Below, piece by piece: positions 16,620 to 35,451 of a stretch of 64,000 bases of DNA. The position numbers and the translations under genes were made by a program. How positions within the stretch are numbered: the first letter of the stretch is position 1; every line of letters begins with the position of its first letter. Origin of the DNA: an uncultured cyanobacterium (GTDB lineage Bacteria > Cyanobacteriota > Cyanobacteriia > Cyanobacteriales > CAWCAG01); assembly GCA_963793425.1 (NCBI GenBank), contig CAWCAG010000005.1, positions 1,216,001 through 1,280,000 on the forward strand, in the 5' to 3' direction. A model generated the notes under the pieces. That model was not told the origin of the DNA. It was given only the letters and a program-made list of their open reading frames with translations, and searched no databases.

Positions 16620-18107
16620 ATGCTCAGTGTCTTTATTTTGTTGCCACTTTTAGGTGCGCTGACGATTAGTCTTTTGCCTCAAAAGTGGGAGCCTAGCCGT
16701 TATCGTTCGGTAGCTTTATTTTTTGCTAGTGCCATCTTGGTTTGGAATATTTTCCTGCTTTTCCAATTTGATCCAACTCAAGCTGAAATGCAGTTTTCTG
16801 AGAACATTAATTGGATTGAATGGATTGGTTTAAACTACCATCTTGGTTTAGATGGGTTATCTTTACCTTTGCTGTTTCTCAACAGTTTATTAACCTTAAT
16901 TGCCATTGTTTTCAGTAGTCGCTCTATTCCCCGGCCTCGTTTTTACTTTGCCCTCTTATTAATCTTGAGTGCTGGGGCATCGGGAGCATTTTTAGCTCAG
17001 GATTTATTGCTCTTTTTCCTTTTTTATGAAGTAGAAATTATTCCTTTATATTTTTTGATTGCTATTTGGGGAGGAAAGCGGCGAGGCTATGCAGCCATGA
17101 AGTTTTTACTATATACCACTTTTTCCGGCATTTTAGTATTAGCTTCATTTTTAGGTTTAGTTTGGTTTACCGGGGCAACTAGTTTTGATTACCAGGTATT
17201 ACGTTCCCAAACCCTACCTGTGGGAACGCAATTTTGGCTTTTAGGTAGCCTCTTAATTGGTTTAGGTATTAAGATCCCCATTTTCCCCTTCCATACCTGG
17301 CTACCAGACGCTCACGTTGAAGCTTCTACCCCCGTTTCTGTACTCTTAGCTGGAGTGCTTTTAAAATTGGGAACCTATGGTTTGTTAAGGTTTGGAGTTG
17401 GTTTGTTTTTAGAAGCTTGGACTATTTTTGCTCCTTGGTTAGCCACCATAGCAGCAATAAGTGCTTTATATGGAGCTTCCTGTGCGATCGCCCAAACTGA
17501 TATGAAGAAGGTGGTAGCTTATTCTTCTATTGCTCACATGGCTTACATTCTTCTGGCTGCTTCGGCAACCACTCCTTTGAGTTTAGTAGCTGCAATCTTC
17601 CAAATGGTGAGTCATGGCTTGATTTCGGCTTTGTTATTTATCTTAGTCGGACTAGTTTATGAAAAAACAGGAACCCGCGAAGTTAAAGCTTTAAGTGGTT
17701 TGCTCAATCCAGAGCGAGGTTTACCTATTACTGGTAGCCTAATGATAGTAGGGGTAATGGCCAGTTCAGGTATTCCAGGTATGGTGGGGTTCATCGCGGA
17801 ATTTGTGGTTTTTCGGGGTAGTTTTCCTATTTTTCCTGTACAAACTTTGTTCTGTATGGTCGGGACAGGCTTAACTGCTGTATATTTTTTATTAGTCATC
17901 AACCGCGTCTTTTTTGGTCGCCTCACAGAAAAACTATCTAATTTACCAAAGGTACAGTGGCGCGAACATATCCCTGCTTTAGTTTTAACAGCATTAATCA
18001 TTATTTTGGGGCTTCAACCCAACTGGATGTTGCGTTGGAGTGAGCCTCAAGGTTTAGCTTTGATTTCTCAACCTCGTGATTTGATTGTTTTAGAACAAAC
18101 TAAGTAA
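16620..18107 (+). CDS. ndhD4: NDH-1 subunit NdhD4
   Basis: ND4-like (PFHTWLPDAHVEA, VVAYSSIAHM). Confidence 0.92.
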   Translation: MLSVFILLPLLGALTISLLPQKWEPSRYRSVALFFASAILVWNIFLLFQFDPTQAEMQFSENINWIEWIGLNYHLGLDGLSLPLLFLNSLLTLIAIVFSSRSIPRPRFYFALLLILSAGASGAFLAQDLLLFFLFYEVEIIPLYFLIAIWGGKRRGYAAMKFLLYTTFSGILVLASFLGLVWFTGATSFDYQVLRSQTLPVGTQFWLLGSLLIGLGIKIPIFPFHTWLPDAHVEASTPVSVLLAGVLLKLGTYGLLRFGVGLFLEAWTIFAPWLATIAAISALYGASCAIAQTDMKKVVAYSSIAHMAYILLAASATTPLSLVAAIFQMVSHGLISALLFILVGLVYEKTGTREVKALSGLLNPERGLPITGSLMIVGVMASSGIPGMVGFIAEFVVFRGSFPIFPVQTLFCMVGTGLTAVYFLLVINRVFFGRLTEKLSNLPKVQWREHIPALVLTALIIILGLQPNWMLRWSEPQGLALISQPRDLIVLEQTK

Positions 18108-18178
18108 TTTGCTAATTGCTAATTGCTAGTTACTAATTGTGCAAGGCAATAGGAAATAAGAGACAGTACATTCTTAAC

Positions 18179-18234
18179 TTATTACTTATTACTTATTACT
18201 TATTACTTATTACTTATTACTTATTACTTATTAC
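18179..18234 (+). repeat. STRR heptamer array (TTATTAC)x8
   Basis: Eight perfect tandem copies. Related arrays lie at about 16567-16593, 24748-24780 and 51726-51757. Confidence 0.9.
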
Positions 18235-18250
18235 TTCCCCCGTATTTGTC

Positions 18251-19381
18251 ATGGTAAGTACCCCAAAAAAGATTGCCCAACCTCCTCTTCCTGAATATAT
18301 TCGGCGTTTAGAATCAGGACAAGCTTTACTTGAAGATACTCCTGAAAATGTTATGGAAGTTGTTGGTATTCTCAAAAGTTATGGTGTTGTTTTAGATGCT
18401 TATTCCCGGAATTTAATTTATATTGCCGAAAATCAACTTTTCGTCTTTTTTCCCTTTTTTAAATATTTCAACGGCAAAGTATCCTTAAAAAAGCTACTTG
18501 CTCACTGGCAGCATGACCGCCTAAACTATGAATATGCTGAATACTGTATGAAAAGTATGTTTTGGCATGGTGGTGGTTGTTTAGATACTTATTTGGATTC
18601 TCCTGAATTTGAGCAAATAGCCCAAGAAGTAATTCAAGCTAAATTTAAGAGTAATCCTTTTTTCCAGACCATACATCTAGGATTCCCAGATTTTTTACCA
18701 GAACAAGTGCGCCAAATGTCCTATTACAGTGGTTTAGGGCAATTTTGGCGGGTAATGAGTGATATGTTTCTTTCTTTATCTGATGAGTATGACGCAGGAA
18801 AGATCAAATCTATTCCTCAAGTAGTGCAGCATATTCTTGATGGCTTAGTCGCAGCAGCTAATCAACCGATTACTTATCAAGTAACTATTCGCGGCAAGGA
18901 ATACAATATTCTTCCTCAATCGGCAGGATTGACTTTTTTGATGGATACTGCCGTACCTTATGTCGAAGCTATCTTTTTCCGAGGTACACCTTTTTTAGGA
19001 ACTATTTCTTATAACGCTCAAGCTTATCAAATTCCTTACGATCCTGGTTCCTTTACCTACGGCGCTTTGTATGCAGATCCTTTACCTATTGGGGGGGCGG
19101 GAATTCCTCCTACTTTACTAATGCAAGATATGCGCCACTTCCTGCCGGATTATCTTCATGAGTTATATAGTAAGAGTCTTAGGGGAGAGGATGATATTAG
19201 GGTACAAATTTGTCAAACTTTTCAAAAGTCAATGTTTTGTGTAACTACTGCCACGATCCAAGGTTTAGCCCCCCATCCTTTAGATACCTCAGATCCTCAA
19301 GAACAAACTGCTAATCGCCAATATTTAGCAGGTTGGATGAAACGTTTACAGAGTTCACAGATATTTAAGGCGAATGAGTAA
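18251..19381 (+). CDS. cupB: CO2 hydration protein CupB (ChpX)
   Basis: EVVGILKSYGVVLDAYSRNL, EYAEYCMK and PPTLLMQDMRH motifs; 376 aa from the ATG at 18251, i.e. the short CupB type. Confidence 0.93.
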   Translation: MVSTPKKIAQPPLPEYIRRLESGQALLEDTPENVMEVVGILKSYGVVLDAYSRNLIYIAENQLFVFFPFFKYFNGKVSLKKLLAHWQHDRLNYEYAEYCMKSMFWHGGGCLDTYLDSPEFEQIAQEVIQAKFKSNPFFQTIHLGFPDFLPEQVRQMSYYSGLGQFWRVMSDMFLSLSDEYDAGKIKSIPQVVQHILDGLVAAANQPITYQVTIRGKEYNILPQSAGLTFLMDTAVPYVEAIFFRGTPFLGTISYNAQAYQIPYDPGSFTYGALYADPLPIGGAGIPPTLLMQDMRHFLPDYLHELYSKSLRGEDDIRVQICQTFQKSMFCVTTATIQGLAPHPLDTSDPQEQTANRQYLAGWMKRLQSSQIFKANE

Positions 19382-20062: not shown

Positions 20063-21016
20063 ATGAAACTGATCAAACTAGGGTCAGGGAGCTTCTACAT
20101 TATTGCCTTGACGGCAATAATTTCCCTAGTTGCTGGGAGTTCCCCGGCCATTGCCCAACCACCACCAATCGAGAATACAGCTTCAGCATCTGGAGACAAC
20201 CTGCCAACGGGGGGGGTTGATTCTAACCTTAATCGCATTGTTATCTCCAACACCATCACCACTCCTGTTAATGTGGCTGAACCAGCCCAATTAGAGCTGA
20301 TTAAAACCGCAGACAGAGCAGCAGCAGAGCCAGGAGATACGGTAGTTTATCGCTTATCTCTGAAAAACTCTGGTACAACAGCAGTTACTGGATTTACCAT
20401 CACAGACACCATGCCCTTGGGGTTAAACTTTCTCAGCGAATCTCTTCAAGGCTCAATTACTGATGGTACAAGTACTACACCAACAACTTTGCCAACAGCA
20501 ACTAGTTCAGGGCGAACAGTTACCTTTACATCTTCAGATACCCTAAATCCGGGTCAAATTCTTAATGTTATTTATGCCGCTGTAGTTACCCCAGATGCAG
20601 TCAGGGGTGACGGTAGAAATACGGCACAGGAACCCCGTAGTAATTTAGCTAGCTATCGGCTGCGGATTCGCCCCGGAATTCTCTCTGACTGCGGTACAGT
20701 TGTCGGTCGGGTTTTTGTTGATAAAAACTTCGATGGTGAACAACAACCAGGAGAATCTGGAGTACCTAACGCCGTAGTAATTATGGATGATGGCAACCGC
20801 ATTACTGCTGATGCCAACGGGTTATTTTCTATGGCCAACGTAATTTCCGGCAATAGGACGGGTACTCTCGACCTAAATAGTTTACCTGGATATACCCTAG
20901 CTCCCAACCTTTACTTTATCGAGCGCAACAGTCAGTCTCGCTTAGTACGTTTAGAACCAGGTGGACTAGTAAGAATGAACTTTGCTGTAACTCCAGCTTC
21001 TGGAGAAGAACAGTAA
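20063..21016 (+). CDS. Secreted DUF11-domain protein with C-terminal SdrD-B/CnaB-like domain (putative adaptor)
   Basis: Signal peptide (SPAIA-Q); DUF11 motif LIKTADR...PGDTVVY...ITDT...RNTA; GRVFVDKNFDGEQQPGESGV calcium-binding Ig motif. Confidence 0.85.
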   Translation: MKLIKLGSGSFYIIALTAIISLVAGSSPAIAQPPPIENTASASGDNLPTGGVDSNLNRIVISNTITTPVNVAEPAQLELIKTADRAAAEPGDTVVYRLSLKNSGTTAVTGFTITDTMPLGLNFLSESLQGSITDGTSTTPTTLPTATSSGRTVTFTSSDTLNPGQILNVIYAAVVTPDAVRGDGRNTAQEPRSNLASYRLRIRPGILSDCGTVVGRVFVDKNFDGEQQPGESGVPNAVVIMDDGNRITADANGLFSMANVISGNRTGTLDLNSLPGYTLAPNLYFIERNSQSRLVRLEPGGLVRMNFAVTPASGEEQ

Positions 21017-21080
21017 CACCTCAAAAATTGAAATTAACTAAGAAATTTAATAAGTAGCCGTCAAATCAGGGGAAGGGATC

Positions 21081-24000
21081 GTGATTGTAAGCAGAAAGGG
21101 TCTTAGTAGACCCAAGCCTTTGAGCATCGGGCATTATCCGCTCTTAAACTTAGCAATTATACTATCTGGGTGCATAGGCATAACTGGTGTAGCTAACGCT
21201 TCGGAAGAAGAGAATCTGGAATTGCTTGAACCAGCCTCTTTTTCTTTAGAAGAAACGAATGTAGAAAGTTTAGAAATTGACAGTCGCTTAGAGGTGACTG
21301 AAAAAGAAGTAACTGAGACAACAGAGATATCTCAAGAAGAAGAAACCTTGGGTGAAACTGTAATTGAGCAACCACTCGCCCCAGACGAGGTGAGGATTTT
21401 AGCTCCTGAAGCGGGGCAAAAAAATAGCCGTTCCACCAATCTTATTGTTCAATATAACGCTAGCAGCGAGGTTAGGGTTGAAATTAATCAAAAACCTCTT
21501 AATCCTAACTTACCGACGCAAATTGAGCAAGATGAAGAGCAAAATCTGATTACCCAAGTTTGGTATAACGTGCCGTTGCAGGAAGGGGAAAATGTTATTA
21601 CCGTTGTGGCTAATAATGGTACTCCTGTAACAACCAAATTAACCGTAGAAGAAGCTGTTATTGGTCAAATTCAACTCTTCCCAGCCGGAGATCCGCGAGT
21701 ACCAGCCGATGGACGTTCTACCATAACCCTAGAAGGAAGCATTACCGATGCAGCAGGGGAACTGATTACCGAAGAAACTTTTGTCACCCTCACCTCCAGT
21801 GCTGGTAAATTCATTGGGACAGACCAAGATGAAGATCGGCCAGGGTTTCAGGTACTAGCTAGGGAAGGAACATTTAAAGCAGAGTTGCAATCAAACTTAG
21901 AAGCGCAGAAGGTAAAGATTCGTGCTGCTGTTGAAAGTTTTGACCTCGACAATTCTTTGTTAGAAGAAGATGCCATAACTGCTGCTAGACTCAACCCCCA
22001 AGATAGAGTAACAGCCGACCTAGAAACCTATAGTCAAGTAGAATTTATTACCTATCTCCGTCCTTCCTTGGTATCTGGAGTCCTTAACCTCCGTATTGGT
22101 GAAGCAGGGACAGATTTCTTTGGTAGTCGCCGGGAATTCCTTAATCCTACCACCATGGATGATGATTTTGAAGCGGATGTAGATGCGGCAGTATTTGCCA
22201 CCGGGGCTATTGGTGAATGGTTATTTACCGGGGCTTATAATAGCGAACGGCCCCTTAATGAAACCTGTGATGGCATTACCAGATTATTCCGGGGGCCGCA
22301 AGAATGTGAGAAGCAATATTCTGTTTATGGCGATAGTTCCAGCGTTGAATATTTAACCCCCTCTACCACTAGTGTTTACTTACGTTTTGAGCGTCAATCT
22401 CCTGTAACTGGGGCTGAACCAGACTACTTTATGTGGGGAGATTATTACACCACAGAATTTAGTCGTCCTTCCCAACTCTTTACGGCTACAACCCGCGCCT
22501 TAAACGGTTTTAAAGGCAACTTAAGCTTAGGAAATTTGCAACTCACGGCTTTATATAGTCCTGATGTAGATGGCTTTCAAAGGGATACTTTAGTCCCTGA
22601 CGGTACTAGCGGCTATTACTTCCTGGCCCGACGGCAGTTGGTTCCCGGTAGTGAGAATATTTTTATTGAAACTGAAGAAATTAATCGCCCCGGTACAGTT
22701 ATTTCTCGCGAGGCCCTAAGTCGTGGTCCGGATTATGAAATTGACTACGATAGGGGAACTTTGTTGTTTCGCCGTCCGATGCAGCAACTAGAGTTTGATC
22801 CTTTTGGTAACACCTTAGTGAGGAAAATTGTTGCTACTTATCAGTTTGAAGGGGATACTGACGGAGAAACGGATATTTATGCAGGGAGAGTGCAATACAA
22901 CTTCTCCCAAGATTTGAACCAAGAAAACTGGTTAGCAGCTACCTATCTTTATGAAGATCAAGGGAGCCAGGATTTTGAGTTATATGGAGCGGATTTCTTA
23001 TTTAATGTGGGGGAAAAAGGGCGCTTCATCGGGGAATTTGCTCGTTCCCACAATAATTCTCCCTTAACCGGAAACGTTGCTGCTAATGCTTATCGTTTGG
23101 AATTGCAAGGGGAAGTTGTTAAAGGAGTTAATGCACGGGCTTTTTATCGTTCTGTCGAAACTGGTTTTGCCAACAATGCCACCACTAGTTTTACCCCAGG
23201 ACAAACCCGCTACGGAGCAGCCATTTTAGCTCAAGTTGCTCCTACTACAACCTTGCAAGCTAGCTTTGATCGCGAAGAAAATTTTGGTGTTGCCCCGGCG
23301 GTACGAACAGTTCCTTTTGATCTTTTTAATCCTAACACTAGTTTGTTTAACCCTGGTTCAGAAGCCCTCCCCGGAACAGCTATTAATAACGATCTCACCG
23401 CTATTTCTGCTGGGGTGAGGCAAAAACTTGGGGATGCAGAATTAAATGTTGACTATGTGCATCGCTCTCGCAACGACGATGCAGGTAATATTTTTGATAG
23501 CGATAGTGACCAAGTTGTCTCTTATCTTAATGTTCCGGTCACAGAAACCATTGCCTTAAGAGCTAAAAATGAAATTAATTTAGGAGATGGGGAAGACCCA
23601 CTTTATCCTAACCGCACAACCTTTGGTATTGATTGGAAAGTGCAACCAGAAGTGACTATGAGACTAGCACACCAATTTTATGATGGGGGCTTGTTGGGGG
23701 ATAATTCCATCACTAGCTTAGAAACCATCACCGAAAAAAGGTTAGGGGAGGATACCTATTTGTATAACCGTTATGCCCTCGTGGGAGGATACAACGGTGT
23801 AACTGGTCAGGGTTCCATTGGTTTAGGTCACCGCCTAACCGTTGCTCCTGGTTTCCGCATTAACTTAGGTTATGAACTCGTCACCAGTGACATTTCTAGT
23901 GTTACAGCAGCAGGGCCTCGTTTTGCTCAACCCTATGCTGTGGGTCAAAGTTCCTCATCTTTGGGCGTATTTGGTGGGGAAGCCTATAGCGTTGGTTTTG

Positions 24001-24761
24001 AATATACAGCTAACCCCGATTTTCAAGTTTCCGGTCGTTTTGAACAGAGGAATGGTTCCGGTCGAGAAAATACTGTTTGGAATGCAGCCGCCGCAGGTAA
24101 AGTGACTCCTGGGTTAACAGCTTTATTCCGTTTTGACCAAGCTAATACCTCCAACCAGATTTTAAGCGGGTTGGGAGATACAGTGAAAGTCAAGATGGGA
24201 CTAGCTTACCGTGACCCCCATGATGACCGTTTTAACGCCTTACTTAAATACGAATATCGCCGTAACCCTTCGATTATCCCCGAAACCCTACTTTTTGGCA
24301 GTGGTACAGGGTCTACTGACCATGTAGTTTCCACTGATATGATTTATGCCCCCGATTGGCGTTGGGAATTTTACGGCAAGTTCGCTATGCGTAGTAGTAC
24401 AACGAATCTAGCTAGTAACTTTAGCAACAGCAGCAGCGTCTTTCTGAGTCAGCTAAGGGCCACCTACCGTACAGGGTATAACACCGATGTTGCTTTAGAA
24501 GGACGTTGGATTGGGCAACCTTCGACCAATTTTGATGAATTTGGCTTTGCAGCAGAAGCTGGCTACTACCTCACTCCTGACCTACGCATCGGTTTGGGTT
24601 ATAGCTTTGGTAGTGTTGATGATGGGGACTTTGACGGTTATCGTTCCGATGGTGGCCCTTACTTAAACTTAACTCTTAAAGTTAATGAATTGTTTGGCGG
24701 TTTTGGTAGGCAAAGGCCTGTGCCGGCACAGCAACAAGAGTCTGAGGTAAGTAATAAGTAA
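21081..24761 (+). CDS. Very large predicted outer-membrane beta-barrel protein with N-terminal Ig-like domains
   Basis: Signal peptide, acidic linker, invasin-like VPADGRSTITL segment, then a long run of amphipathic aromatic-rich beta strands ending GPYLNLTLKVNELF. Confidence 0.75.
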   Translation: MIVSRKGLSRPKPLSIGHYPLLNLAIILSGCIGITGVANASEEENLELLEPASFSLEETNVESLEIDSRLEVTEKEVTETTEISQEEETLGETVIEQPLAPDEVRILAPEAGQKNSRSTNLIVQYNASSEVRVEINQKPLNPNLPTQIEQDEEQNLITQVWYNVPLQEGENVITVVANNGTPVTTKLTVEEAVIGQIQLFPAGDPRVPADGRSTITLEGSITDAAGELITEETFVTLTSSAGKFIGTDQDEDRPGFQVLAREGTFKAELQSNLEAQKVKIRAAVESFDLDNSLLEEDAITAARLNPQDRVTADLETYSQVEFITYLRPSLVSGVLNLRIGEAGTDFFGSRREFLNPTTMDDDFEADVDAAVFATGAIGEWLFTGAYNSERPLNETCDGITRLFRGPQECEKQYSVYGDSSSVEYLTPSTTSVYLRFERQSPVTGAEPDYFMWGDYYTTEFSRPSQLFTATTRALNGFKGNLSLGNLQLTALYSPDVDGFQRDTLVPDGTSGYYFLARRQLVPGSENIFIETEEINRPGTVISREALSRGPDYEIDYDRGTLLFRRPMQQLEFDPFGNTLVRKIVATYQFEGDTDGETDIYAGRVQYNFSQDLNQENWLAATYLYEDQGSQDFELYGADFLFNVGEKGRFIGEFARSHNNSPLTGNVAANAYRLELQGEVVKGVNARAFYRSVETGFANNATTSFTPGQTRYGAAILAQVAPTTTLQASFDREENFGVAPAVRTVPFDLFNPNTSLFNPGSEALPGTAINNDLTAISAGVRQKLGDAELNVDYVHRSRNDDAGNIFDSDSDQVVSYLNVPVTETIALRAKNEINLGDGEDPLYPNRTTFGIDWKVQPEVTMRLAHQFYDGGLLGDNSITSLETITEKRLGEDTYLYNRYALVGGYNGVTGQGSIGLGHRLTVAPGFRINLGYELVTSDISSVTAAGPRFAQPYAVGQSSSSLGVFGGEAYSVGFEYTANPDFQVSGRFEQRNGSGRENTVWNAAAAGKVTPGLTALFRFDQANTSNQILSGLGDTVKVKMGLAYRDPHDDRFNALLKYEYRRNPSIIPETLLFGSGTGSTDHVVSTDMIYAPDWRWEFYGKFAMRSSTTNLASNFSNSSSVFLSQLRATYRTGYNTDVALEGRWIGQPSTNFDEFGFAAEAGYYLTPDLRIGLGYSFGSVDDGDFDGYRSDGGPYLNLTLKVNELFGGFGRQRPVPAQQQESEVSNK

Positions 24762-24813
24762 TAAGTAATAAGTAATAAGTTAAGAACATGGTTTCGCTGA
24801 TTAGCAATTAGCC

Positions 24814-24872
24814 GTAGGGGCGACCCGTTTCCCAAACATATTCGACAAGCCCAAATTTATATTTGGTCGCCC
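24814..24872. repeat. GTAG-type REP-like palindrome
   Basis: GTAGGGGCGACC ... GGTCGCCC. Confidence 0.55.
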
Positions 24873-24919
24873 ATCTCAACCATTAGCTGTTTCTATCACG
24901 TTTACAAGGAGTAAAAAGA

Positions 24920-26632
24920 GTGAATTCTGTTCAGGTTAAAGCATCTATTTTGGCATTACCTTTGGCTTTATTAGCTATCCCCAACCTAGCTAATGCCGAA
25001 ACAATGAATTGGCAGGCGGTGGTTAATACCAATGCTGATACTATTCAAGCCGATAACTTCCTTAGTTTGCGAGAGGCGATCGCAGCTATTAATGGTAGCT
25101 TGCCCATGGAGGAGTTAAGTGAAGCGGAAAGGCAGCAATTGACTCCAGGGGAAGGTAATTCTCGCATTGAATTTAATTTATCCCCCCAAAAGACAACCAT
25201 CAATTTAGTAGGACTGCTGCCTCCTCTATCTACTCCAGGACTGGTTATTGATGGTACAAGTCAACCAGGTTACGACCGAGAGGAATTAGAAAAACAAGGG
25301 GGGGCAACACCTATTCCTGTGGTTGCTATTACTCCAGCAACAGAAAGTCAGGTACTGCGAGGTTTAACTATTGTTGCTGATGGTGTCACGGTAAGGGGGC
25401 TAAGCATTTATGGTTTCAGTTATCCCCAAGGCCCTACAGCCAACACTCCCACCGCCGATATTTTCATCTCCCATCGCTTGCCGCCTCCCGATACCTTTGG
25501 TCGAGAAATACCCTACGACGAGTTTTCTTTCAGTGAACAGGATGTTCCTCCCCAGGATGTGGTGATTGAACATAATTGGTTAGGAGTGCCTTCGGGGTTA
25601 GGTACAGATTCTCGCTTTATTAGTCAAATTGATAGGAGCAAAAATGAAGTAGCCAGAAATGCGAAACCACAAGAGTTTGGTGTTACTGACTCTTTGTTTG
25701 TGGTTCCCACTGCAGCCAAGCCGCAATCTCCTCAACCAGACTCCCCTGCTGCAAAGAAGTTATCCGGTTTCGGAGTCTATGTTTTTAATAGCAAAGGAAC
25801 AACTATTCACCGCAACATCATCGCTAACCACGATGGTAGCGGCATCATCACTAGCGTCAGGGCGAAAAACTTATTAGTTAGGGACAACCTGATTGAAAGG
25901 AATGGCTTTGCGGGAATGCCCGACGGCATCCGTTTAGAAGGAGATATTACTGATGCCATGATTCAAGGTAATTTAATTCGTAACAATGCTGGTAGTGGTA
26001 TCTTTGCTTTTAAACCAACGGGTGCAGTAGAAATTCGGGACAACAACATCACCGACAACGGCAAACGCTATGAACGGGCGGCCATTTATCTTTCTGGTAG
26101 TGACCATTTAATTACCAGAAACCGCATTGCCAATCAACCCGGTACAGGAGTTACCGTTGCAGCTTTCCCAGAGAGCGATCGCGTGGTAATTCTCAATAAT
26201 TTGTTTACTGGTTTGCAAGGACTAAGCATTGATTTAGTTGCCCAAAATGGTACAGAAGTAAAAAATTACCAAAAAGGTGACGGCCCCAACCCAGAAATTG
26301 AATTTTATCAACGTCGCCGTCAAGCAGCCAATAATGGTATCAATGCCCCCAATTTTGTTAGTCGGGAATTCTTCGCCTTGAACAACAAAACCAAATTGAT
26401 GGGTAAAGCCTTAGCTGATTCTACAGTAGAAATTTACCGAGTGATTGAAGAAGATGGTCAACAAGGGCCTCTTAACCAAGAAATCGCTACGGTGGAAGTG
26501 GACAAAGGGGGCAATTTTGAGATAGAAATATCAGGATTGCAACCAGGCGATCGCGTGACAGCAACAGCCACTCACGCTGATTATGGTACATCAGAACCTG
26601 CATTTAATGCAGCAATTGTACCTCTTCCTTAA
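24920..26632 (+). CDS. Secreted CSLREA-like / right-handed parallel beta-helix protein
   Basis: Signal peptide; VVNTNAD...LSLREAI motif; NxIxxN beta-helix repeats; C-terminal VTATAT...GTSE motif. Confidence 0.8.
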   Translation: MNSVQVKASILALPLALLAIPNLANAETMNWQAVVNTNADTIQADNFLSLREAIAAINGSLPMEELSEAERQQLTPGEGNSRIEFNLSPQKTTINLVGLLPPLSTPGLVIDGTSQPGYDREELEKQGGATPIPVVAITPATESQVLRGLTIVADGVTVRGLSIYGFSYPQGPTANTPTADIFISHRLPPPDTFGREIPYDEFSFSEQDVPPQDVVIEHNWLGVPSGLGTDSRFISQIDRSKNEVARNAKPQEFGVTDSLFVVPTAAKPQSPQPDSPAAKKLSGFGVYVFNSKGTTIHRNIIANHDGSGIITSVRAKNLLVRDNLIERNGFAGMPDGIRLEGDITDAMIQGNLIRNNAGSGIFAFKPTGAVEIRDNNITDNGKRYERAAIYLSGSDHLITRNRIANQPGTGVTVAAFPESDRVVILNNLFTGLQGLSIDLVAQNGTEVKNYQKGDGPNPEIEFYQRRRQAANNGINAPNFVSREFFALNNKTKLMGKALADSTVEIYRVIEEDGQQGPLNQEIATVEVDKGGNFEIEISGLQPGDRVTATATHADYGTSEPAFNAAIVPLP

Positions 26633-26638
26633 TCTCAC

Positions 26639-26663
26639 CAGTCCCCCTGAGAGAGGGGGACTG
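26639..26663 (+). terminator. Intra-operon GC-rich stem-loop (terminator or mRNA stabiliser)
   Basis: Perfect 10-bp stem CAGTCCCCCT-GAGAG-AGGGGGACTG; no clear U-tract. Confidence 0.5.
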
Positions 26664-26720
26664 TTGGGGAATTATCAAAAACAATTAACACCAGAGTCAG
26701 AAATTGTATTGTCTTGAATT

Positions 26721-29201
26721 ATGAAGCAAATTTTAAAAGTATTACCCATTCCTCAAAAACCTAATTTCCGTAACTCTGCTGCTTGGTTAGTTGGAGGTTT
26801 AACCTTATGGACAACATCTATTGCTTATTATTCTCCTGTTGCAAAAGCGCAAGAGCCTTTTAGCTGCGATGGTCTTTTTTTCCTGAGTCAGGGTATAAAC
26901 CCACCTAATACAGTTCCAACAACTTTAAACGTTGTTAACACAGGAAGTGTACCTTTTAATTTGACTGCTAGAGGAGGAGATGAAGATAGGAACAATGCTA
27001 CAGGTTTCCGCTTTGATGTTAACGGTTCATTTATCTATGGTATTAATCCAGATAGAATAGGACAAAGCGTAACGAACAAGGCTCAAGTTGTCTATAAAAT
27101 AGATCGAAACGGTAAACTTTTCCCTATTAGCAATGGATCTATTGCTCAAGGTGCTTCTACATTAGCTCAAGAAGCTCGCTTTATAGCTGGAGACATTGGA
27201 ATTAATGGTAACTACTATGTTTATGGAGGAAACGGAGTACTTCTAGAAATTGATGTCTCTGGACCAGAAGCAATGTTAGTTCTGCCTGAGAAGAGACTAC
27301 AAGACCCTGCAAATGGTAATAGCCCCCCTGACATAGCAGACTTTGCTCTAAACCCTCTTGATGGCAACTTTTATGCTTTCACTAGGAATGGGAATAGGCT
27401 TGTTTTTTTTAATCCTAATGATCCCAGTCCCATTAGCATTCAAGACTTACCAGGAGTTAGCGGTTTACCAACTATCTTTCCTGCCCCTCCAGGTACTGCT
27501 CGTGATAACGTTGGTGCAGCTTTCTTTGATGGTGCTGGTAATTTATTTATCTACAAAAATGGCAATATTCAGCCCCCTGGTGAACTCTACAGAATAAATG
27601 TTGGGGTTGAAGGTAATCGTCCTAGCGCCATTACATCTGTACGCCTCAGTGAGGCAGAGGCTGTTAGCAACAACGATGGTTCAGCCTGTCCTTTTGCACC
27701 AAAGCTAGAAAAAAGCGTCAGCACCAATCAAGTTGTAGCTGGGGGTACTATTGACTATTTCTATACCATTACAAATCCTAATGCTGTAGCAATAACACAA
27801 CAGTTCCCTCCCCTAACTTTTAGTGATAATTTAACCAATGGTCGAACTTTTGTGAGTGCGGAGATTGTACAGCCTGTCACAGGGGATCTTAGTACTTTTT
27901 CTGGCGGTAATCTTAGTATATCCGACGGTCAAAGTCTAACAATTAGCAACTTAGGACTTCCTTCCACAAATGCAATAGCCAGCCCTCCTCAAGTAGGGAA
28001 GATAGTTATCAAAGCTACGGTTCGAGTAGCCCTCAATGCTTCTGCGGGAACAGTTTTTAACCAAGCAACTTTAAATGGTTTACCAGGGCCATTCCCGCCC
28101 TCCATTCCTTCTGACTTCCCTGGTGCAGGAGCCTTACCTGACCCCTCACCCCTGGTTATTTTACCTCCCCCTGTTCCGGCGGGGACAAAATCTGTTGAGT
28201 TAGCCATTGATGCTGATAACACCAGTAGCGTTACTCCAGGGGACACTATCGAATACGCTGTCAGCTATTTTAATACCAGTTCCAGCACCGACGTAACCGA
28301 TTTTGCTGTCACAGATACTATCGACTCCAACTTAACTTTTGTTCCGGGTAGTTACAACTTCCAAGTTGCTTCAGGTAGTCCAGCAGTTAGCGAGAATACT
28401 GCTTTTGATGGTACTAGTGACAACAGGCTCACTCTTCCCGGAGGAATTTTGACCCCTGGTTCCCAAATAACTGTTAGCTACCGCGCCACAATTAATGCAA
28501 ATGTGACACCAGGAACAGTAATAGATAACCAAGCTTCAGCAACTTCCACCGCCTCCCCTCCAGGAAGCCCTGATACTATTATCACCCCCTCTGTCACAGA
28601 TGCAGTAGGAGATTCGAGCCAGATTCCCCAAGTCCTTGATGATGGGCAAGAAGGAGGCAACTCCCCAGGAAACACAGGAGACGATGAACCCACAAGGTTG
28701 GTCGTAGCTGATCCTACTGCTGACGGTAATTTAGTGTTGGTCAAGCGTATTACTAACGTGATCAGAAACGGTGTACCTTTAGCTGGAATTAACTTCAGTA
28801 ACTTTATTGATGATGAAGCTGATATTAACGATAACTTCCCCGGTTGGTCTGCCCTTTCTCCTGTTGGGGTTCTTAGTTTGGGAACAGACAATGCCTTAAG
28901 TAGCGGAGATACAGTTGAGTACACAGTTTATTTCTTATCTAATGGTAGGAAACCAGTTGAGGATTTAAAAATCTGCGATGCTATACCGGAAAGAACAGAT
29001 TATGTTGCCAACAGTCTTATCTCTTTCCAAAATTTAGGCAACCCAAGCTTCTTCAACGAGTTAGATTCAAGCCTACCTGTACCACCTTGCCCTAATAGTA
29101 ACAACCCTGATGGGGCTGTATCGTTGGATTTAAGTCCTAGCTTCTCTAATACTAGTCCTGATAATGTCGGTTTTGTACGCTTTCGAGTGGAAATAAACTG
29201 A
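26721..29201 (+). CDS. Secreted adhesin-like protein: beta-propeller-like head plus three DUF11-type Ig domains
   Basis: Signal peptide (AKA-Q); head bounded by FSCDG...NDGSACP; repeats LEKSV..GGTIDY, GTKSV..GDTIEY and LVKRI..GDTVEY. Confidence 0.82.
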   Translation: MKQILKVLPIPQKPNFRNSAAWLVGGLTLWTTSIAYYSPVAKAQEPFSCDGLFFLSQGINPPNTVPTTLNVVNTGSVPFNLTARGGDEDRNNATGFRFDVNGSFIYGINPDRIGQSVTNKAQVVYKIDRNGKLFPISNGSIAQGASTLAQEARFIAGDIGINGNYYVYGGNGVLLEIDVSGPEAMLVLPEKRLQDPANGNSPPDIADFALNPLDGNFYAFTRNGNRLVFFNPNDPSPISIQDLPGVSGLPTIFPAPPGTARDNVGAAFFDGAGNLFIYKNGNIQPPGELYRINVGVEGNRPSAITSVRLSEAEAVSNNDGSACPFAPKLEKSVSTNQVVAGGTIDYFYTITNPNAVAITQQFPPLTFSDNLTNGRTFVSAEIVQPVTGDLSTFSGGNLSISDGQSLTISNLGLPSTNAIASPPQVGKIVIKATVRVALNASAGTVFNQATLNGLPGPFPPSIPSDFPGAGALPDPSPLVILPPPVPAGTKSVELAIDADNTSSVTPGDTIEYAVSYFNTSSSTDVTDFAVTDTIDSNLTFVPGSYNFQVASGSPAVSENTAFDGTSDNRLTLPGGILTPGSQITVSYRATINANVTPGTVIDNQASATSTASPPGSPDTIITPSVTDAVGDSSQIPQVLDDGQEGGNSPGNTGDDEPTRLVVADPTADGNLVLVKRITNVIRNGVPLAGINFSNFIDDEADINDNFPGWSALSPVGVLSLGTDNALSSGDTVEYTVYFLSNGRKPVEDLKICDAIPERTDYVANSLISFQNLGNPSFFNELDSSLPVPPCPNSNNPDGAVSLDLSPSFSNTSPDNVGFVRFRVEIN

Positions 29202-29787
29202 TTGATATTGGTGTTTACTAAATAGTCTATTAACTTAAAATTTATAGCTAAGGAGTAAAGGCTAGTAAGATTAGTCTTTACTCCTTAAGTTAGGTATTTG
29301 TAGTGTTTTTCAACTCAAAATATTTAGCGATCATAATGATATTGAAGGGATTAAGTTAGATGTGATTTTGTTTAACTTAATCTCTCTTGAGAGGGAATCA
29401 ATAACTAGAGTTTCTAGCTAACATTTATTACTACAAGTTCACTTAATAAATAATTAAGCTGAAGAAGGTGAGGAAATGCCATTGTATACATTCCTCGCAA
29501 CTCTATTTAGTTGCTTTACCGCTTTAGCTTGAAAAAGAGCTTAATTGAATTTTACGTCTACTTCAGTTAATGGAAAGTTGCATATTCATTAACTAAAAGC
29601 CCCAAAATACCATACATACTGTAGCAGAAAGTATCATCCAAATCAACTAAATAAAGAATAAAGTTCTACCAAAGTTATTCACACTTTCTAAACTCCAATT
29701 ACTCGACTAAAAAATATCAAATACAGTCTTCTCAATACAGCCTAATGAGCAGTATTGCCCAATTGCTGTAGCTAAACAAATTCAGCT

Positions 29788-32202
29788 ATGAAACAACTTT
29801 CTAATAATCGTACACTTAAGAAAATAACTTCCTGGTTAACAAACAGTTTAAGCATTGCGATCGCCGCCCTAAATTATGCCCCTTCCACTTCTGCCCAAAC
29901 GCCTTTTGCTTGCGACGGAGACTTCTTCCTTTCTCAAAAAGAAAACACTCAACTAACCACAGTCAACACCAGCACAACTCCTTTTCGCCTACCTGTCATC
30001 AGTTTTCCTGCCCCATCAACAACTCCCAGAGAATATAATGCAATGGGCTTTCGGGTGCAAGATGGCTTTATCTATGCCATTGAACCTGGTGATCCTGTCA
30101 GAGGAATTGATAACCCTGCTGATTCCTATGAAATCTTTCGCATCGACCGCAAAGGAACTGTTACCCCTATTGGTAAGCCTCTAGGTTTACCCTTGCAAGC
30201 TCCAATTCCCAATACCAATAATAGATACATAGCTGGGGATTTTTCAGGAGATGGAACTTACTACATTTACAACAACAATACCGGAAAATTGGTGCAAATT
30301 GATGTTACCAAGAGGCCGCCGCAAATTCTCCAGGTGAGAGACTTGCAAAGACCAGGAGGAGGCTTTCCTAAATTTTCAGATATGGCTTACAGTCCAGTAG
30401 ACGGTAAATTTTATGCCTATGACCAATTTGAAGGTCGGTTACTGAGGTTTGACCCAGAACAAGGTAGCACTGTTACCGTAGAATACTTAAATGGAGTTAC
30501 TAATCCTATTGGTAATCGCTCTGTGGGGGCAACTTTTTTTGACGGTGCGGGTACTCTTTACGCTTATCAAAATGAACCAGGGCTACTGTACAGCGTCAAC
30601 GTTTTAGATACCCCAGTTAAATATACCTTCCTTAGTAATGCCCCCAGTGTTGATTTTAATGACGGTGCAGCTTGTCCTTTTGTACCACGCATCATTAAAA
30701 CCGTTGATCCTCCTTCTGTAATAGCAGGGAACAACGTTACCTACACTTACTTAATTACTAACCCTAACCCTCCCGAAAGACCTATAACAGGTTTGACCAT
30801 AACCGATACTATGGCAAATGGTCGTAAATTTCTTGAACCTCCTCATGTAAAAATTGTTAGGGGGCAAGGAGGTAGTACAGGTAATGTAATTTTAAGCAAC
30901 GACAATCGTACTTTTACCATCACAGGCTTAACCCTTCCTGCTGCCAATGCCAAAACTGTAACCCCAGGACAAGTTCAAATCACCGCCCAAGTTAATGTTC
31001 CGGTTACAACTCCTCCTGGCACTGTTTTTAACCAAGCTATTGTCCGTAACCTTCCTGGGGGGAGTTTTCCTGATAGCATTGGGTCAGACTTTCCTGGGGC
31101 GGGGGCCGTACCAGACCCTACTCCTTTGGTGGTTTTAGCCCCAGCTTCTCCGGTAGGAACTAAATCTGTACGTCTGTTTGAAGATGTGGATGAAGACGGT
31201 TCAGTTACGAGAGGAGATATTTTGGAGTATGTGGTAACTTACATTAATAATAGCAGCACTAATGTTACCAACTTTGTAGCTACAGATACTCTAGATGCCA
31301 GTAGTTTGCAGTTGTCTGGGGGCTATGATTTTAATGTTTCTGGTCCTCTGGGAACTACAGTGGCTGCAAACCCTAGTTTTAATGGTACAACTATCCCTCA
31401 ACTTAATAAATCTGGTATACTTGCTGCTAATGGGGGTCAAGTTACCATCAAGTTTCAAGCAAAGATTGTTGCAGGGCCTGGAGTTGCCGTGAAAAACCAA
31501 GCTGTTGCTATTGCTGATGCGGGGCCTGGAGTACAAACCCCTTCTGTTACAGATGCTGTGGGGGGGTCAGGGGAAATCCCTCAAGAACTTGATGATGGAG
31601 AAGATGGGGGCAACTTACCTGGTACAGGAACAGGGGATGATGAACCCACAATAGTAGTTGTGCAAGAGCCTAACACCACCAGTTTATTCCTAGTTAAACG
31701 CATTACCAATGTGGTTAGAGATGGTATATCGCTACCAGGAGTAGATTTCCAAAGATTTGTTGACAATAAGAGCGATCCTAACGATACTGTTCCTGGTTGG
31801 TCTGCTAGTCTTCCTTTCGGTTTGCTTACTGTTGAACCAGATAACACTCTACAAAGCGGCGATTTTGTAGAATATACCATTTACTTTCTCGCTAGTGGTT
31901 CCCAAGCTGTCGAAAATGTCAAGATTTGCGATGCTGTACCTCAAGGTACTACCTATGTTCCGAGCAGTATTTCCTTGACTCTTCCTCCGGCAGGTTCTCA
32001 AAGTATTGCCCAAACCGATGCTAAAGGAGACGATGCAGCAACTTTTGTCAAATCCTTAGACTTAAGTTCTCCTTTTGGTTCTCCTCCTTGTCTTGATAGC
32101 AAAAATATTAATGGTTCCTTAGTTGTAGATTTGGGTTCAACTCTTTCTAACAGCAATCCTCGCAATGTTGGTTCAGTAAGTTTTCGAGTTAAGGTTAATT
32201 AA
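29788..32202 (+). CDS. Paralogous secreted adhesin-like DUF11 protein
   Basis: Same architecture as 26721-29201 (FACDG...NDGAACP; IIKTV, GTKSV, LVKRI; SDFPGAGAxPDP; GDDEPT). Confidence 0.82.
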   Translation: MKQLSNNRTLKKITSWLTNSLSIAIAALNYAPSTSAQTPFACDGDFFLSQKENTQLTTVNTSTTPFRLPVISFPAPSTTPREYNAMGFRVQDGFIYAIEPGDPVRGIDNPADSYEIFRIDRKGTVTPIGKPLGLPLQAPIPNTNNRYIAGDFSGDGTYYIYNNNTGKLVQIDVTKRPPQILQVRDLQRPGGGFPKFSDMAYSPVDGKFYAYDQFEGRLLRFDPEQGSTVTVEYLNGVTNPIGNRSVGATFFDGAGTLYAYQNEPGLLYSVNVLDTPVKYTFLSNAPSVDFNDGAACPFVPRIIKTVDPPSVIAGNNVTYTYLITNPNPPERPITGLTITDTMANGRKFLEPPHVKIVRGQGGSTGNVILSNDNRTFTITGLTLPAANAKTVTPGQVQITAQVNVPVTTPPGTVFNQAIVRNLPGGSFPDSIGSDFPGAGAVPDPTPLVVLAPASPVGTKSVRLFEDVDEDGSVTRGDILEYVVTYINNSSTNVTNFVATDTLDASSLQLSGGYDFNVSGPLGTTVAANPSFNGTTIPQLNKSGILAANGGQVTIKFQAKIVAGPGVAVKNQAVAIADAGPGVQTPSVTDAVGGSGEIPQELDDGEDGGNLPGTGTGDDEPTIVVVQEPNTTSLFLVKRITNVVRDGISLPGVDFQRFVDNKSDPNDTVPGWSASLPFGLLTVEPDNTLQSGDFVEYTIYFLASGSQAVENVKICDAVPQGTTYVPSSISLTLPPAGSQSIAQTDAKGDDAATFVKSLDLSSPFGSPPCLDSKNINGSLVVDLGSTLSNSNPRNVGSVSFRVKVN

Positions 32203-32228: not shown

Positions 32229-33059
32229 ATGGTTGATTTAGAAAACAACAGTAAGCAAGAAGAATCTTTACTGTTTTTACATATTCCTAAAGCAGGTGGT
32301 TCGACTCTAACAACAATTCTTGATAAGCAATATCAGAAACAAGAAGTATATAAAATTCGTGAACTTAAAGACCTAGATATTCTTAACAATGCTGATAAGA
32401 AGAGTAAAAACCAGTTTAAAGTAATTACTGGACATTTTCCTTTTGGCTTGCATGAAGACTTGCTTCAAAAGTGTAGCTATATAACTATGCTACGGGAACC
32501 CACAGAACGTCTAATTTCTCTCTATTACTATATTCGTAGTTCTGTTGAACATCGCTTACACCAGCAAATAGTATCTAAGCAAATGACCTTAGAAGAATTT
32601 GTTAGTAGTGGCATACTAGAAACAACTGATAATTGTCAAACTAGATTAATATCTGGGCAAATGGAAGTTGAATTTGGTTGTGCTTCCCAAGAAATGTTAG
32701 CAATGGCTAAAGATAATCTTCAAAAGATGGCAGTAGTAGGAATTTTAGAGAATTTTGACGAAACTTTGGTCTTAATAAAAAAAAATTTGGGCTGGCAAGA
32801 TATTTTTTACACAAAGAAGAATATCACTAGAAGTCGTCTTTCTCAACAAGAAATACCTCAATCTACTCTGAAAGTTATAGAAGAATACAGTCAGTTAGAT
32901 CGAGAGCTTTACAATTATGCCAAAGGCATTTTAAAGCAACAAATTGCTAAAGAACAACCCTCTTTTGCTCTGGAGCTATCAACTTTCAAGTTACTTAACA
33001 GAAGTCATAAAATGTATTTTGATCTAAAGGCAAAAACAAAATCTCTAGTTCGCGGCTAA
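32229..33059 (+). CDS. Sulfotransferase (family 2-like)
   Basis: PAPS-binding motifs FLHIPKAGGST and LREPTERLISLYYY. Confidence 0.88.
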   Translation: MVDLENNSKQEESLLFLHIPKAGGSTLTTILDKQYQKQEVYKIRELKDLDILNNADKKSKNQFKVITGHFPFGLHEDLLQKCSYITMLREPTERLISLYYYIRSSVEHRLHQQIVSKQMTLEEFVSSGILETTDNCQTRLISGQMEVEFGCASQEMLAMAKDNLQKMAVVGILENFDETLVLIKKNLGWQDIFYTKKNITRSRLSQQEIPQSTLKVIEEYSQLDRELYNYAKGILKQQIAKEQPSFALELSTFKLLNRSHKMYFDLKAKTKSLVRG

Positions 33060-33083
33060 ACAGATATTTATTACTTTCTTAAT

Positions 33084-34344
33084 TCAATTTGCCACTACCG
33101 CAGAACTCTTTTTGTCAGTAACCTTTTTACTCAAAACATCCTCATATAACTGAATATAACGCTTTGTTTGTAACCTTAAAGAATATTCTGCAACAGCAAT
33201 ATGGCGACAATTCCCACTTAAATTAGTTTGCAAATCACTATTTTCTAAAACTGTGGTTATATTTCGGCACAAGTCCTGAGCATCTTCTGGATTTGCTAGA
33301 TAGCCTGTAACCCCAGTTCTTACTAATTCAGAAACACCACCAACATCAAAAGAAACTAAAGGTGTACCGCAAGCCATACTCTCTTGTAATACTAAAGGTA
33401 AATTATCATGGCGAGTAGGCAAAACAAATACATCGGCTGCGGAATAGGCGATCGCTTTTTCTAGTTCACTGGTTAAATAACCGAGATTAAAACTTTTTAA
33501 ACCAAATTCTTCTGAGGAAAAATCACCTTGATTCCCCATTGTCAAAACAATAGTTTCAGCCTTTAAAGCTTCTGGCAAATTTTGTAGTGCTTTTAATAAT
33601 AGTTCTCCCCCTTTAATAGGATTCTTTAAATCTTGCACCCCAAACATCAATACTTTTTTATCTTGGGGTATGTCAAGTTTAAACCGACATTCTTCTTTAC
33701 TTAAAGGAGAGTAAATTTCGGTATTAATTCCATTAGGAATATGCTGAATAGGAAAGCGATTGAGCATACTTTGTTTGGCTTGACTTGCTAACCACTTACT
33801 TGGGGTAACTATGGTTAATTTAGAAAGACGGTAAACTAATTTTTTGAGTTGCCATTCCCAATTAGTATTATCTTTTTTAACAGCAGGATAGCTATCTAAA
33901 TGGGGACATTTACCACAACCAGTTTTCCAGCGATCGCAGCCATAACTATAAGCACAATGTCCTGTGAAACTCCACATATCATGGAGAGTAAATACAGCAG
34001 GTTTGTTTAAGTTGAGTAAGGGCAGGGCTAAATAAGAGAATTTGCCACTATGGAGGTTATGAAAGTTGAGAAGATCTCGCTTGTTTGTAAAAGTTGTGTT
34101 TAGGAATAACAAATGAACCAACAAATTGTAAGTAATTTAAACCTAAAGATTCAGTAAAAGGGGCAATTCTTGCTTCCCAACGCATTTTACGGGGAATAGG
34201 TGCTATGTTGCTGCTTTTTGTTTGAGGCGAGGCAACAAGAAGACGGGAATTAATACCCGTTTCTAATAATCCCTGATGTAATCTATAGCCAGCAATAGCA
34301 GCACCGCCATTAATGTCAGATTGATTAATGTGTAAAACATTCAT
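33084..34344 (-). pseudogene. Glycosyltransferase family 4 (WcaC-like), split by a single +1 frameshift near 34078 (possible sequencing error)
   Basis: MNVLHINQSDINGGAAIAGYRLH...FYKQA continues in the next frame as DLLNFHNLH...TLHDMW...DNLPLVLQESMACGTP. Confidence 0.8.
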
Positions 34345-34395
34345 ATTTAGTTTTTTGCACCCTGATGTTGCCTTGGATGTTGGATGTTGAATTAT

Positions 34396-35238: not shown

Positions 35239-35451
35239 TTTACTACCATACTAATAGCTAAAAAGCATTTACTAGATTATTCAGCTAATTCAAAGATGCT
35301 TTCCTTAAAGCAGAATGTCTTTCAAAAAAACAGAATAAAATGGCTGAATTTAATCCAGTCTGTTTGTAGCAATTAAATAATACTTCTTCCCAAGCTTTGT
35401 TAATTCAGGAAAGGTTATTTATTTAATAGTTGTAGATGCAACCAACGTTTC

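Follow-up and report, generated by a model that had tools for sequence, protein, structure and literature searches.

Gene organization of the locus

We analyzed a stretch of 64,000 nucleotides from an uncultured cyanobacterium (Cyanobacteriales; CAWCAG01; assembly GCA_963793425.1, contig CAWCAG010000005.1, positions 1,216,001-1,280,000, forward strand), hereafter called the window. The genome, labelled G000, is 98.6% complete, and the window lies on its contig C5. Five co-directional genes at one locus encode proteins of 317, 1226, 570, 826, and 804 amino acids (aa), all of which have signal-peptide-like starts as read by eye. The 826-aa and 804-aa proteins are adhesin-like and are designated cargo 1 and cargo 2, and the 317-aa protein is designated the anchor. 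This study concerns the last domain of the two cargo proteins, which appears to be truncated and may be completed by the N-terminus of the anchor. The features of the locus are summarized in Table 1.

A preliminary description of this locus had listed, for its open reading frames (ORFs), Asn38 of the anchor (codon AAT, 20174-20176), the motifs LVKRIT, GDxVEY, and KICDA and the C-termini of both cargo proteins, together with the Lys, GDxxxY, Asp, and NQA strands of the internal domains. All of these were located as listed. The anchor and both cargo proteins matched the DUF11/CLIPPER family and an "isopeptide-forming fimbrial" domain model in Pfam and NCBIfam. The whole-protein scores for PF01345 were 47.6, 33.8, and 42.2 bits for the anchor and the two cargo proteins, all above the cut-off of 24.6. 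On the anchor, PF01345 covered residues 77-183, TIGR04226 scored 37.1 bits, and SdrD_B matched residues 216-264 weakly, with 22.1 bits, which is under its cut-off. DUF11 (PF01345) was recently renamed CLIPPER, and the crystal structure 9IFR shows an autocatalytic Lys-Asp-Asn isopeptide triad in this family (PMC12617251).

Table 1 Features of the locus in the window.
Feature	Position	Strand	Basis
Anchor/adaptor, 317 aa: signal peptide, orphan donor stretch, complete CLIPPER/DUF11 domain, SdrD_B-like C-terminal domain	20063..21016	+	ORF, PF01345, TIGR04226
Orphan N-terminal extension, anchor residues 32-76, proposed donor of Asn strand and final strand	20156..20290	+	Conservation
Anchor's own complete CLIPPER domain, K81/D115/N186	20291..20671	+	Invariant residues, 9IFR alignment
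SdrD_B-like (CnaB-type) domain of anchor, candidate triad K221/E287/N306	20672..20995	+	Near-invariant block
1226-aa outer-membrane protein (predicted)	21081..24761	+	Weak Pfam matches, Atlas neighbours, synteny
570-aa right-handed beta-helix protein: CSLREA-like N-terminus, C-terminal Ig-like domain	24920..26632	+	PF13229, NosD
Cargo/adhesin 1, 826 aa: signal peptide, DUF6923 head, two complete CLIPPER domains, truncated C-terminal domain	26721..29201	+	ORF, Pfam/NCBIfam
Truncated C-terminal CLIPPER-like domain of cargo 1, residues 655-826; K675 = 28743-28745, D753 = 28977-28979	28683..29201	+	Family alignment, AF2
Cargo/adhesin 2, 804 aa, architecture as cargo 1	29788..32202	+	ORF, Pfam/NCBIfam
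Truncated C-terminal domain of cargo 2, residues 617-804; K637 = 31696-31698, D715 = 31930-31932	31636..32202	+	50% identity to cargo 1 domain

Truncation of the C-terminal cargo domain

By sequence, a Lys/Asp/Asn triad is present within one chain in the internal domains and in the anchor's own domain. The full triad was not found in the terminal domains of the cargo proteins, where the Lys and Asp are conserved and the AlphaFold2 (AF2) model ends ahead of the Asn strand of the templates. In cargo 1, LVKRIT starts at residue 673 (K675), GDTVEY at 729, and KICDA at 750 (D753), and the protein ends in ...GFVRFRVEIN. Cargo 2 has K637, GDFVEY at residue 691, and D715, and ends in ...GSVSFRVKVN. 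When searched alone, the terminal domains scored 13.9 and 22.7 bits (the latter for cargo 2) against PF01345, under the cut-off, and aligned only with profile positions 10-54 of 114.

The terminal domain forms a family of its own; a cut-off of E ≤ 1e-3 gives 1222 representatives, and one of E ≤ 1e-10 gives 305. Among the top 150 relatives, 125 have the domain at the very C-terminus, where it ends in the motif G-F-x-R-F-R-V-x-x-x. The remaining 25 are one fragment and 24 giant repeat proteins whose matches are partial and confined to the generic core. Across 127 aligned relatives, K675 was conserved in 98% of the sequences, and D753 and the Cys pair C752/C790 in 100%. D753 aligned with the catalytic Asp of the anchor (hhalign) and with the Asp of 9IFR. 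The terminal Asn of the cargo domains had also been named as a possible bond partner. The last residue of the 125 relatives varies (N 53, D 50, E 12, Q 6, K 2, G 1, L 1); this Asn is not conserved in the cargo family and is therefore ruled out as a reactive residue for the type-1 family, to which the cargo proteins of the window belong.

A copy of the cargo domain in G314, a genome of the same genus, lies in an open frame of only 168 aa (C2:1251621-1252127) and has a TAG within the matched region; the cargo gene of this genome is possibly disrupted.

The AF2 model of the cargo 1 domain alone, built with a 56-row alignment, had a predicted local distance difference test score (pLDDT) of 88.6 and a predicted template modeling score (pTM) of 0.85; the pLDDT from the single sequence was 43.9. 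The top Foldseek match of the model was 9IFR, a CLIPPER domain (E 9.5e-3, prob 1.00, template modeling score 0.58 on target). VIA-align superposed the model on 9IFR with Z 7.1 and a root-mean-square deviation of 2.2 Å over 90 residues, a Z under 8 being common according to the warning of this tool, and on Gram-positive pilin isopeptide domains with Z 6.6-7.3. In the alignment with RrgB D2 (2x9z), model residues 15..172 corresponded to chain residues 187..307. RrgB D2 spans residues 187-325 and has Lys193, Asp241, and Asn318, as given in a table of PMC12617251. The aligned ranges and this table together place K675 (model residue 21) on Lys193 and the end of the model 11 residues before Asn318. 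This placement is consistent with the preliminary description, in which the last domain of both adhesins was said to stop before the Asn strand. In all four structural alignments (RrgB, SspB, BcpA, and 9IFR), the model ends 9-12 residues before the template Asn strand. We take SspB (2wza), BcpA (3kpt), and 9IFR to agree with the picture obtained for RrgB, on residue numbers that are less secure. The case made by the model that the cargo domain lacks exactly the Asn strand and what follows is good, not conclusive.

Orphan N-terminal stretch of the anchor

Homologs of the anchor numbered 2059 at E ≤ 1e-3 and are cyanobacterial where the sources carry names. An orphan Asn-type stretch had been reported right after the signal peptide of the 317-aa protein, and it is present there, with the cleavage site placed by eye. 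We aligned 30 homologs, hand-chosen among the 120 listed. Asn38, Ala42, Ser62, and Asn63 in the orphan stretch were invariant in all 30; conservation of Asn38 had been set beforehand as one of the points on which the proposal could fail. K81, D115, N186, S193, and N194 of the anchor's own domain were invariant in the same alignment, and residues 77-181 aligned to 9IFR with E 0.042. The SdrD_B-like end was the best conserved part of the protein. Judging from the sequence, K221, E287, and N306 of this end are candidates for an internal isopeptide triad.

We also collected 80 anchor genes from other cyanobacteria, of which 64 were short-type and readable, 13 had no readable N-terminus, and 3 were long-type and set aside. 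N-x-A was found a few residues past the signal peptide in 64 of the 64 readable short-type anchors (62 with the strict pattern and two with NTAR). In the whole genome of the window, the donor motif directly follows a signal peptide in only four proteins, all encoded within two clusters, namely the present locus and a paralogous one described below. The orphan motif I-x-N-x-A-x-A is that of the cis Asn strand I-D-N-Q-A-S-A in the 826-aa protein. Three features, namely this short motif, its location at the start of the mature protein, and its conservation, are the basis for reading the orphan stretch as a DUF11 Asn strand.

The 120 longer anchor homologs listed are anchors with longer stalks or added N-terminal modules. 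A loose pattern detected a donor-like start in 85 of these 120, and it misses variants visible by eye. A Rosetta-stone search for an unsplit cargo-anchor fusion found none among them.

Conservation of the operon and co-occurrence of its parts

Synteny was analyzed in the 54 anchor loci whose downstream sequence extends over at least 9.5 kb. The outer-membrane gene directly followed the anchor in 53 loci, the beta-helix gene was present in 48, and a cargo gene ending in the truncated domain was present in 43. The 11 loci without such a cargo comprised four that end within an adhesin-like ORF, six with no such gene over the remaining ~3.5 kb, and one that was disrupted. The cargo heads in this set were very diverse, and 0 had a donor-like N-terminus. 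Anchor, ~1200-aa outer-membrane protein, beta-helix protein, and cargo thus form a conserved cyanobacterial operon.

The preliminary description had proposed, as a check, the co-occurrence of truncated domains and orphan strands across genomes. In a sample of 301 genomes of the phylum, the cargo domain was found in 41, the anchor in 42, and both in 41. In a sample of 401 genomes of the order, both parts were found in 170 and neither in 218; 8 had an anchor without the cargo domain and 5 the cargo domain without an anchor. The lists were matched by eye, some genomes belong to both samples, and related genomes do not count as independent observations. Anchor and cargo domain go together in these counts. 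Several genomes, that of the window included, have more cargo genes than anchors. The pattern of a truncated domain and an orphan stretch is far beyond chance.

The sole genome of the phylum sample with an anchor and no cargo domain, G115, encodes a 1301-aa fusion of anchor and outer-membrane protein. This fusion (L084:8656-12561) consists of a donor-less anchor and the C-terminal 880 residues of the outer-membrane protein, and it skips the N-terminal 300 residues of the latter (acidic region and Ig-like domain). The SdrD_B-like end of the anchor is joined directly to the outer-membrane protein. Because the two are fused in G115, the anchor is physically tied to the outer-membrane protein. In G373, a genome of the same genus, the anchor is separate, its donor segment is missing, and no cargo domain was detected. 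Donor and cargo domain are both present in G438, which also belongs to this genus. The losses in G115 and G373 may represent a single evolutionary event. Among the other anchor-only genomes, G376, G405, and G341 were left unassessed for the donor, and the anchor N-terminus of G320 lies outside the fetched locus.

Outer-membrane and beta-helix proteins

The 1226-aa protein has an acidic N-terminus, an Ig-like region at ~206-285, and a conserved C-terminal module of ~880 aa starting from ~residue 328. The segment encoded at 21200-21400 (residues ~40-110) is very acidic, Glu/Thr-rich, and repeat-like, and a similar region occurs in the paralogue. No Pfam or NCBIfam family matched the protein above threshold; there were weak Pfam matches only, and none to the autotransporter beta-domain (type Va). 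Its Atlas neighbours belong to clusters that are unnamed or auto-named as outer-membrane/TonB-type. The protein is presumably a barrel. The 570-aa protein matched PF13229 with 79.6 bits and NosD with 45.8 bits. Neither the 1226-aa nor the 570-aa protein had a sequence match in the PDB. Either may have a role in export.

The proximity of this outer-membrane protein raises the question of whether the terminal cargo domain is mainly a sorting or export tag that it reads, with the anchor stretch serving another role and no completion in trans. The logic would be like that of the C-terminal domains of type IX secretion cargo. Such a tag would suit a domain that is always C-terminal on many unrelated heads, is encoded beside a large outer-membrane protein, and gives a confident AF2 model alone. 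It leaves unexplained the triad Lys and Asp, which are 98-100% conserved where there is no Asn strand, the invariant Asn at the mature N-terminus of the anchor, and the absence of the donor exactly where the cargo domain is missing. We consider this explanation unlikely. The ideas of an export tag and of completion in trans are compatible, and both can be true.

As for the flanks of the operon, the genes upstream (16620-19381) may encode NDH-1 subunit D and a CupA-like CO2-uptake protein, which they resemble by eye. The downstream flank (32229-36402) has a lower G+C content (0.34-0.35) and carries, again by eye, look-alikes of sulfotransferase and glycosyltransferase genes.

A proposed split CLIPPER domain

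We propose that the cargo domain is completed in trans by the anchor and locked by a Lys-Asn isopeptide bond, a prediction that we favor with some reserve. It is partly supported, as completion in trans agrees with every indirect test run. This agreement rests on the truncation point, the conservation of Lys, Asp, and Asn, synteny, co-occurrence, the change of the donor motif by type, the joint loss, and a dual-ended paralogue (see below for the first and last of these three).

A split CLIPPER (DUF11, CnaA-like) isopeptide domain would be the basis of a modular surface-display system. The cargo end would supply the Lys strand and the Asp strand and would finish with the strand that comes just before the Asn strand in complete domains. 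The mature N-terminus of the anchor would supply the two missing strands, including the Asn. The anchor extension would insert beside the last strand of the cargo domain by donor-strand complementation. Lys675 (or Lys637), Asp753 (or Asp715), and Asn38 could then form an autocatalytic Lys-Asn isopeptide bond, giving a covalent joint. The SdrD_B-like end of the anchor would be held by the 1226-aa outer-membrane protein, and no sortase would be needed to fasten the adhesin head to the outer membrane. We infer the insertion of the strand, the formation of the covalent bond, and the surface location; surface attachment is suggested by the neighbouring outer-membrane protein and by the one natural anchor-barrel fusion.

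Several results weigh against this proposal. No cargo domain was found in the ~3.5 kb remaining after the beta-helix gene in six of the 54 loci, and two genomes with fragmented assemblies, G301 and G569, have a donor-like anchor start and no detected cargo domain. In the sequence-only alignment, the Lys strand of 9IFR pairs with a Lys-less stretch just before GDxVEY, and the K675 strand lies ~45 residues upstream of that stretch; because the sequence alignment places the 9IFR Lys strand elsewhere, the assignment of K675 to the first strand rests on the model. The fold Z scores of 6.6-8 fall in the range that the tool calls common. Profiles did not detect the orphan stretch as a DUF11 strand. 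Pfam gave no DUF11 match on the N-terminal pieces of four donor-bearing proteins, and a hidden Markov model (HMM) of the anchor's own domain scored real extensions about the same as shuffled ones (median 1.1 vs 0.2 bits, with shuffles up to 12.4). An HMM of the extension, run over the 8118 ORFs of the genome, had the anchor as its sole match at E < 0.1 (the type-2 subunit had E 1.3) and detected no internal G strand anywhere in the genome. One profile comparison was positive (12 columns, score 17.4 vs at most 9.3 in 30 column shuffles), and it is partly circular because both sets were picked using the shared motif. AF2 gives a confident fold for the isolated cargo domain, and this domain contains two conserved internal Asn residues, N795 (97%) and N815 (90% of the 127-sequence alignment).

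The last two results and the failure of the profiles would fit a cargo domain that is complete alone, with an internal Asn or no bond, and an anchor extension that packs on its own domain or is a flexible linker. We regard this as very improbable. The four structural alignments end before the template Asn strand, and N815 lies at the start of the last strand, ~5 residues off the position of an Asn partner as deduced from the aligned ranges. The anchor's own domain, in turn, already has an Asn strand and a final strand, in which N186, S193, and N194 are invariant.

A paralogous cluster and other variants

A second cluster was found in the same genome (contig C1:359414-375504, locus L083). Its products are an anchor of 499 aa, an outer-membrane protein of 1197 aa, a beta-helix fragment, and two DUF7925 proteins (836 and 820 aa). 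Directly behind its signal peptide, each DUF7925 protein carries an orphan N-x-A stretch, and its C-terminal domain is truncated. The N-terminal motif was present in 119 of the 120 listed homologs, and 118 of the 120 have an Asn after F-x-F-Q-R-K-V at the C-terminus, in contrast to the variable N/D/E/Q of the type-1 cargo. A DUF7925 protein is thus both donor and acceptor and can polymerise head to tail; by analogy, these proteins are candidate fibre subunits, a role that fits their two ends. The donor motif differs by type: type-2 anchors and subunits have N-x-A-x-x-x-Y-x-D-P, and type-1 anchors have N-x-A-S-A-S-G-D-N. Anchors of the two types are homologous outside this motif. In the Fischerella-like type-2 operon, the order is subunit, 190-aa truncated DUF11 protein, anchor, outer-membrane protein, and cargo.

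A small secreted protein of 185-196 aa with a single DUF11-like domain is encoded at L083:13392-13949 (-), and just upstream of the anchor gene in the loci L071, L075, and L079. It ends after the strand preceding the Asn strand and has Gln at the position of the catalytic Asp. Its sequence suggests a possible role in capping or chaperoning donor strands without a covalent bond. The 185-aa member, which belongs to the paralogous cluster, bears on whether completion in trans is non-covalent, with Lys, Asp, and Asn serving only for packing or hydrogen bonding: owing to its Gln, the system may also include acceptors that form no covalent bond. In chaperone-usher pili, moreover, donor strands as a rule complement subunits non-covalently. 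The Lys/Asp/Asn set, for its part, matches the experimentally shown CLIPPER triad (PMC12617251) and is conserved across both partners, and we judge a purely non-covalent joint to be quite unlikely.

Two further features were noted. A 1145-aa protein combining a TPS secretion domain with a CHAT protease domain is encoded midway through the paralogous cluster, on the other strand (L083:9893-13330 (+)). Many anchors are ~800 aa long (P0396-P0510) and have an extra N-terminal module of ~500 aa; most of these start, past the signal peptide and a conserved Cys, with a donor motif of the N-Q-A-x-Y-x-Y-x-D type. On sequence grounds, they look like a third type of system.

The dual-ended subunits suggest a wider, more tentative proposal, which we hold to be possible and on balance somewhat doubtful. 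Filamentous cyanobacteria would have undescribed fibres or pili built by head-to-tail completion of split CLIPPER domains, with each joint locked by a spontaneous Lys-Asn bond, from acceptor-only tips, shaft subunits, and a donor-only anchor. The tips would bear diverse adhesin heads, as in the window, and the shaft would consist of the DUF7925 subunits of 820-860 aa, each a donor and an acceptor. At the base, the donor-only anchor would be docked to the ~900-aa outer-membrane protein, with which it is fused in one genome, and this protein may double as a platform for export and assembly. The predicted shaft-forming variant occurs in Nostocales.

Comparison with known systems

In the available text of PMC12617251, the bonds treated are intramolecular, and the terms "strand complementation" and "SpyCatcher" are absent from that text. 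The proposed system shares with the CLIPPER domain 9IFR the fold family and the Lys/Asp/Asn chemistry, and the internal domains of all three proteins are ordinary members. The triad of 9IFR lies in a single chain and stabilises a stalk, whereas the last domain here has no Asn strand and the Asn apparently comes from another protein. Our literature search, in which most subscription journals were outside coverage, revealed no account of a naturally split CLIPPER domain or of the operon.

In chaperone-usher pili, an Ig-like subunit is missing its last strand, and the N-terminal extension of the following subunit fills the gap. The parts correspond: an acceptor-only tip (cargo), a shaft of donor and acceptor (DUF7925), a donor-only base (anchor), and an outer-membrane protein in the operon. 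The fold is different, however, and a covalent lock is predicted here. Neither the usher PF00577 nor the PapD-like chaperone PF00345 was found in the genome of the window or among the five cluster proteins, and the controls matched.

Donor-strand exchange followed by an intermolecular isopeptide bond, with no sortase, has been proposed for BsaA (TasA family) of Clostridium perfringens (bioRxiv 10.1101/2024.11.04.621531). The same has been proposed for archaeal threads, in which the bond uses the N-terminal amine (PMC9715654). Both are homopolymers with folds of other kinds, from a monoderm bacterium and from archaea, respectively, unlike the proposed split of a CnaA-like domain between cargo and anchor in a diderm with a dedicated outer-membrane protein. 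At the level of sequence, no TasA/camelysin-like family was found among the Pfam matches at E ≤ 0.1 for the five cluster proteins.

Tag/Catcher pairs such as SpyTag/SpyCatcher and isopeptag/pilin-C were engineered from split isopeptide domains. DogTag/DogCatcher is another such pair (PMC8878318). The proposed system resembles them in having a peptide with one reactive residue and a truncated domain with the partner residue and the catalytic acid. Engineered pairs are man-made, whereas the split proposed here, if true, is natural and kept across cyanobacteria. On this analogy, they are its closest functional counterpart.

Sortase-assembled Gram-positive pili (RrgB, BcpA, SpaA) provide the closest solved folds to the cargo domain and are covalent fibres of isopeptide domains. 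They differ in that the cargo proteins have no LPXTG-type end and the envelope is diderm. No C-terminal sorting signal was found in the cargo proteins, as the ends ...RVEIN and ...RVKVN are without an LPXTG-type signal or a hydrophobic tail, and sortase PF04203 had no match in the genome of the window. With classical autotransporters (type Va), only the passenger-then-barrel order of the G115 fusion shows a resemblance. The mechanism put forward in the preliminary description is, with the reserve stated above, what best accounts for the data. It would apply a known principle, completion by a donor strand followed by an isopeptide lock, to a fold and an envelope in which it is new.

Significance

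How diderm bacteria could build covalent, mechanically robust surface structures has been little explored. If true, the proposed system would be a natural Tag/Catcher pair and would provide sortase-independent covalent attachment of surface proteins in a diderm bacterium. Its logic would be modular, in that any head could be combined with the docking domain, and it would offer new orthogonal parts for protein ligation. It would also assign a function to a large uncharacterised family of outer-membrane proteins and define a widespread cyanobacterial operon, whose anchor is present in 178 of the 401 sampled genomes of the order.

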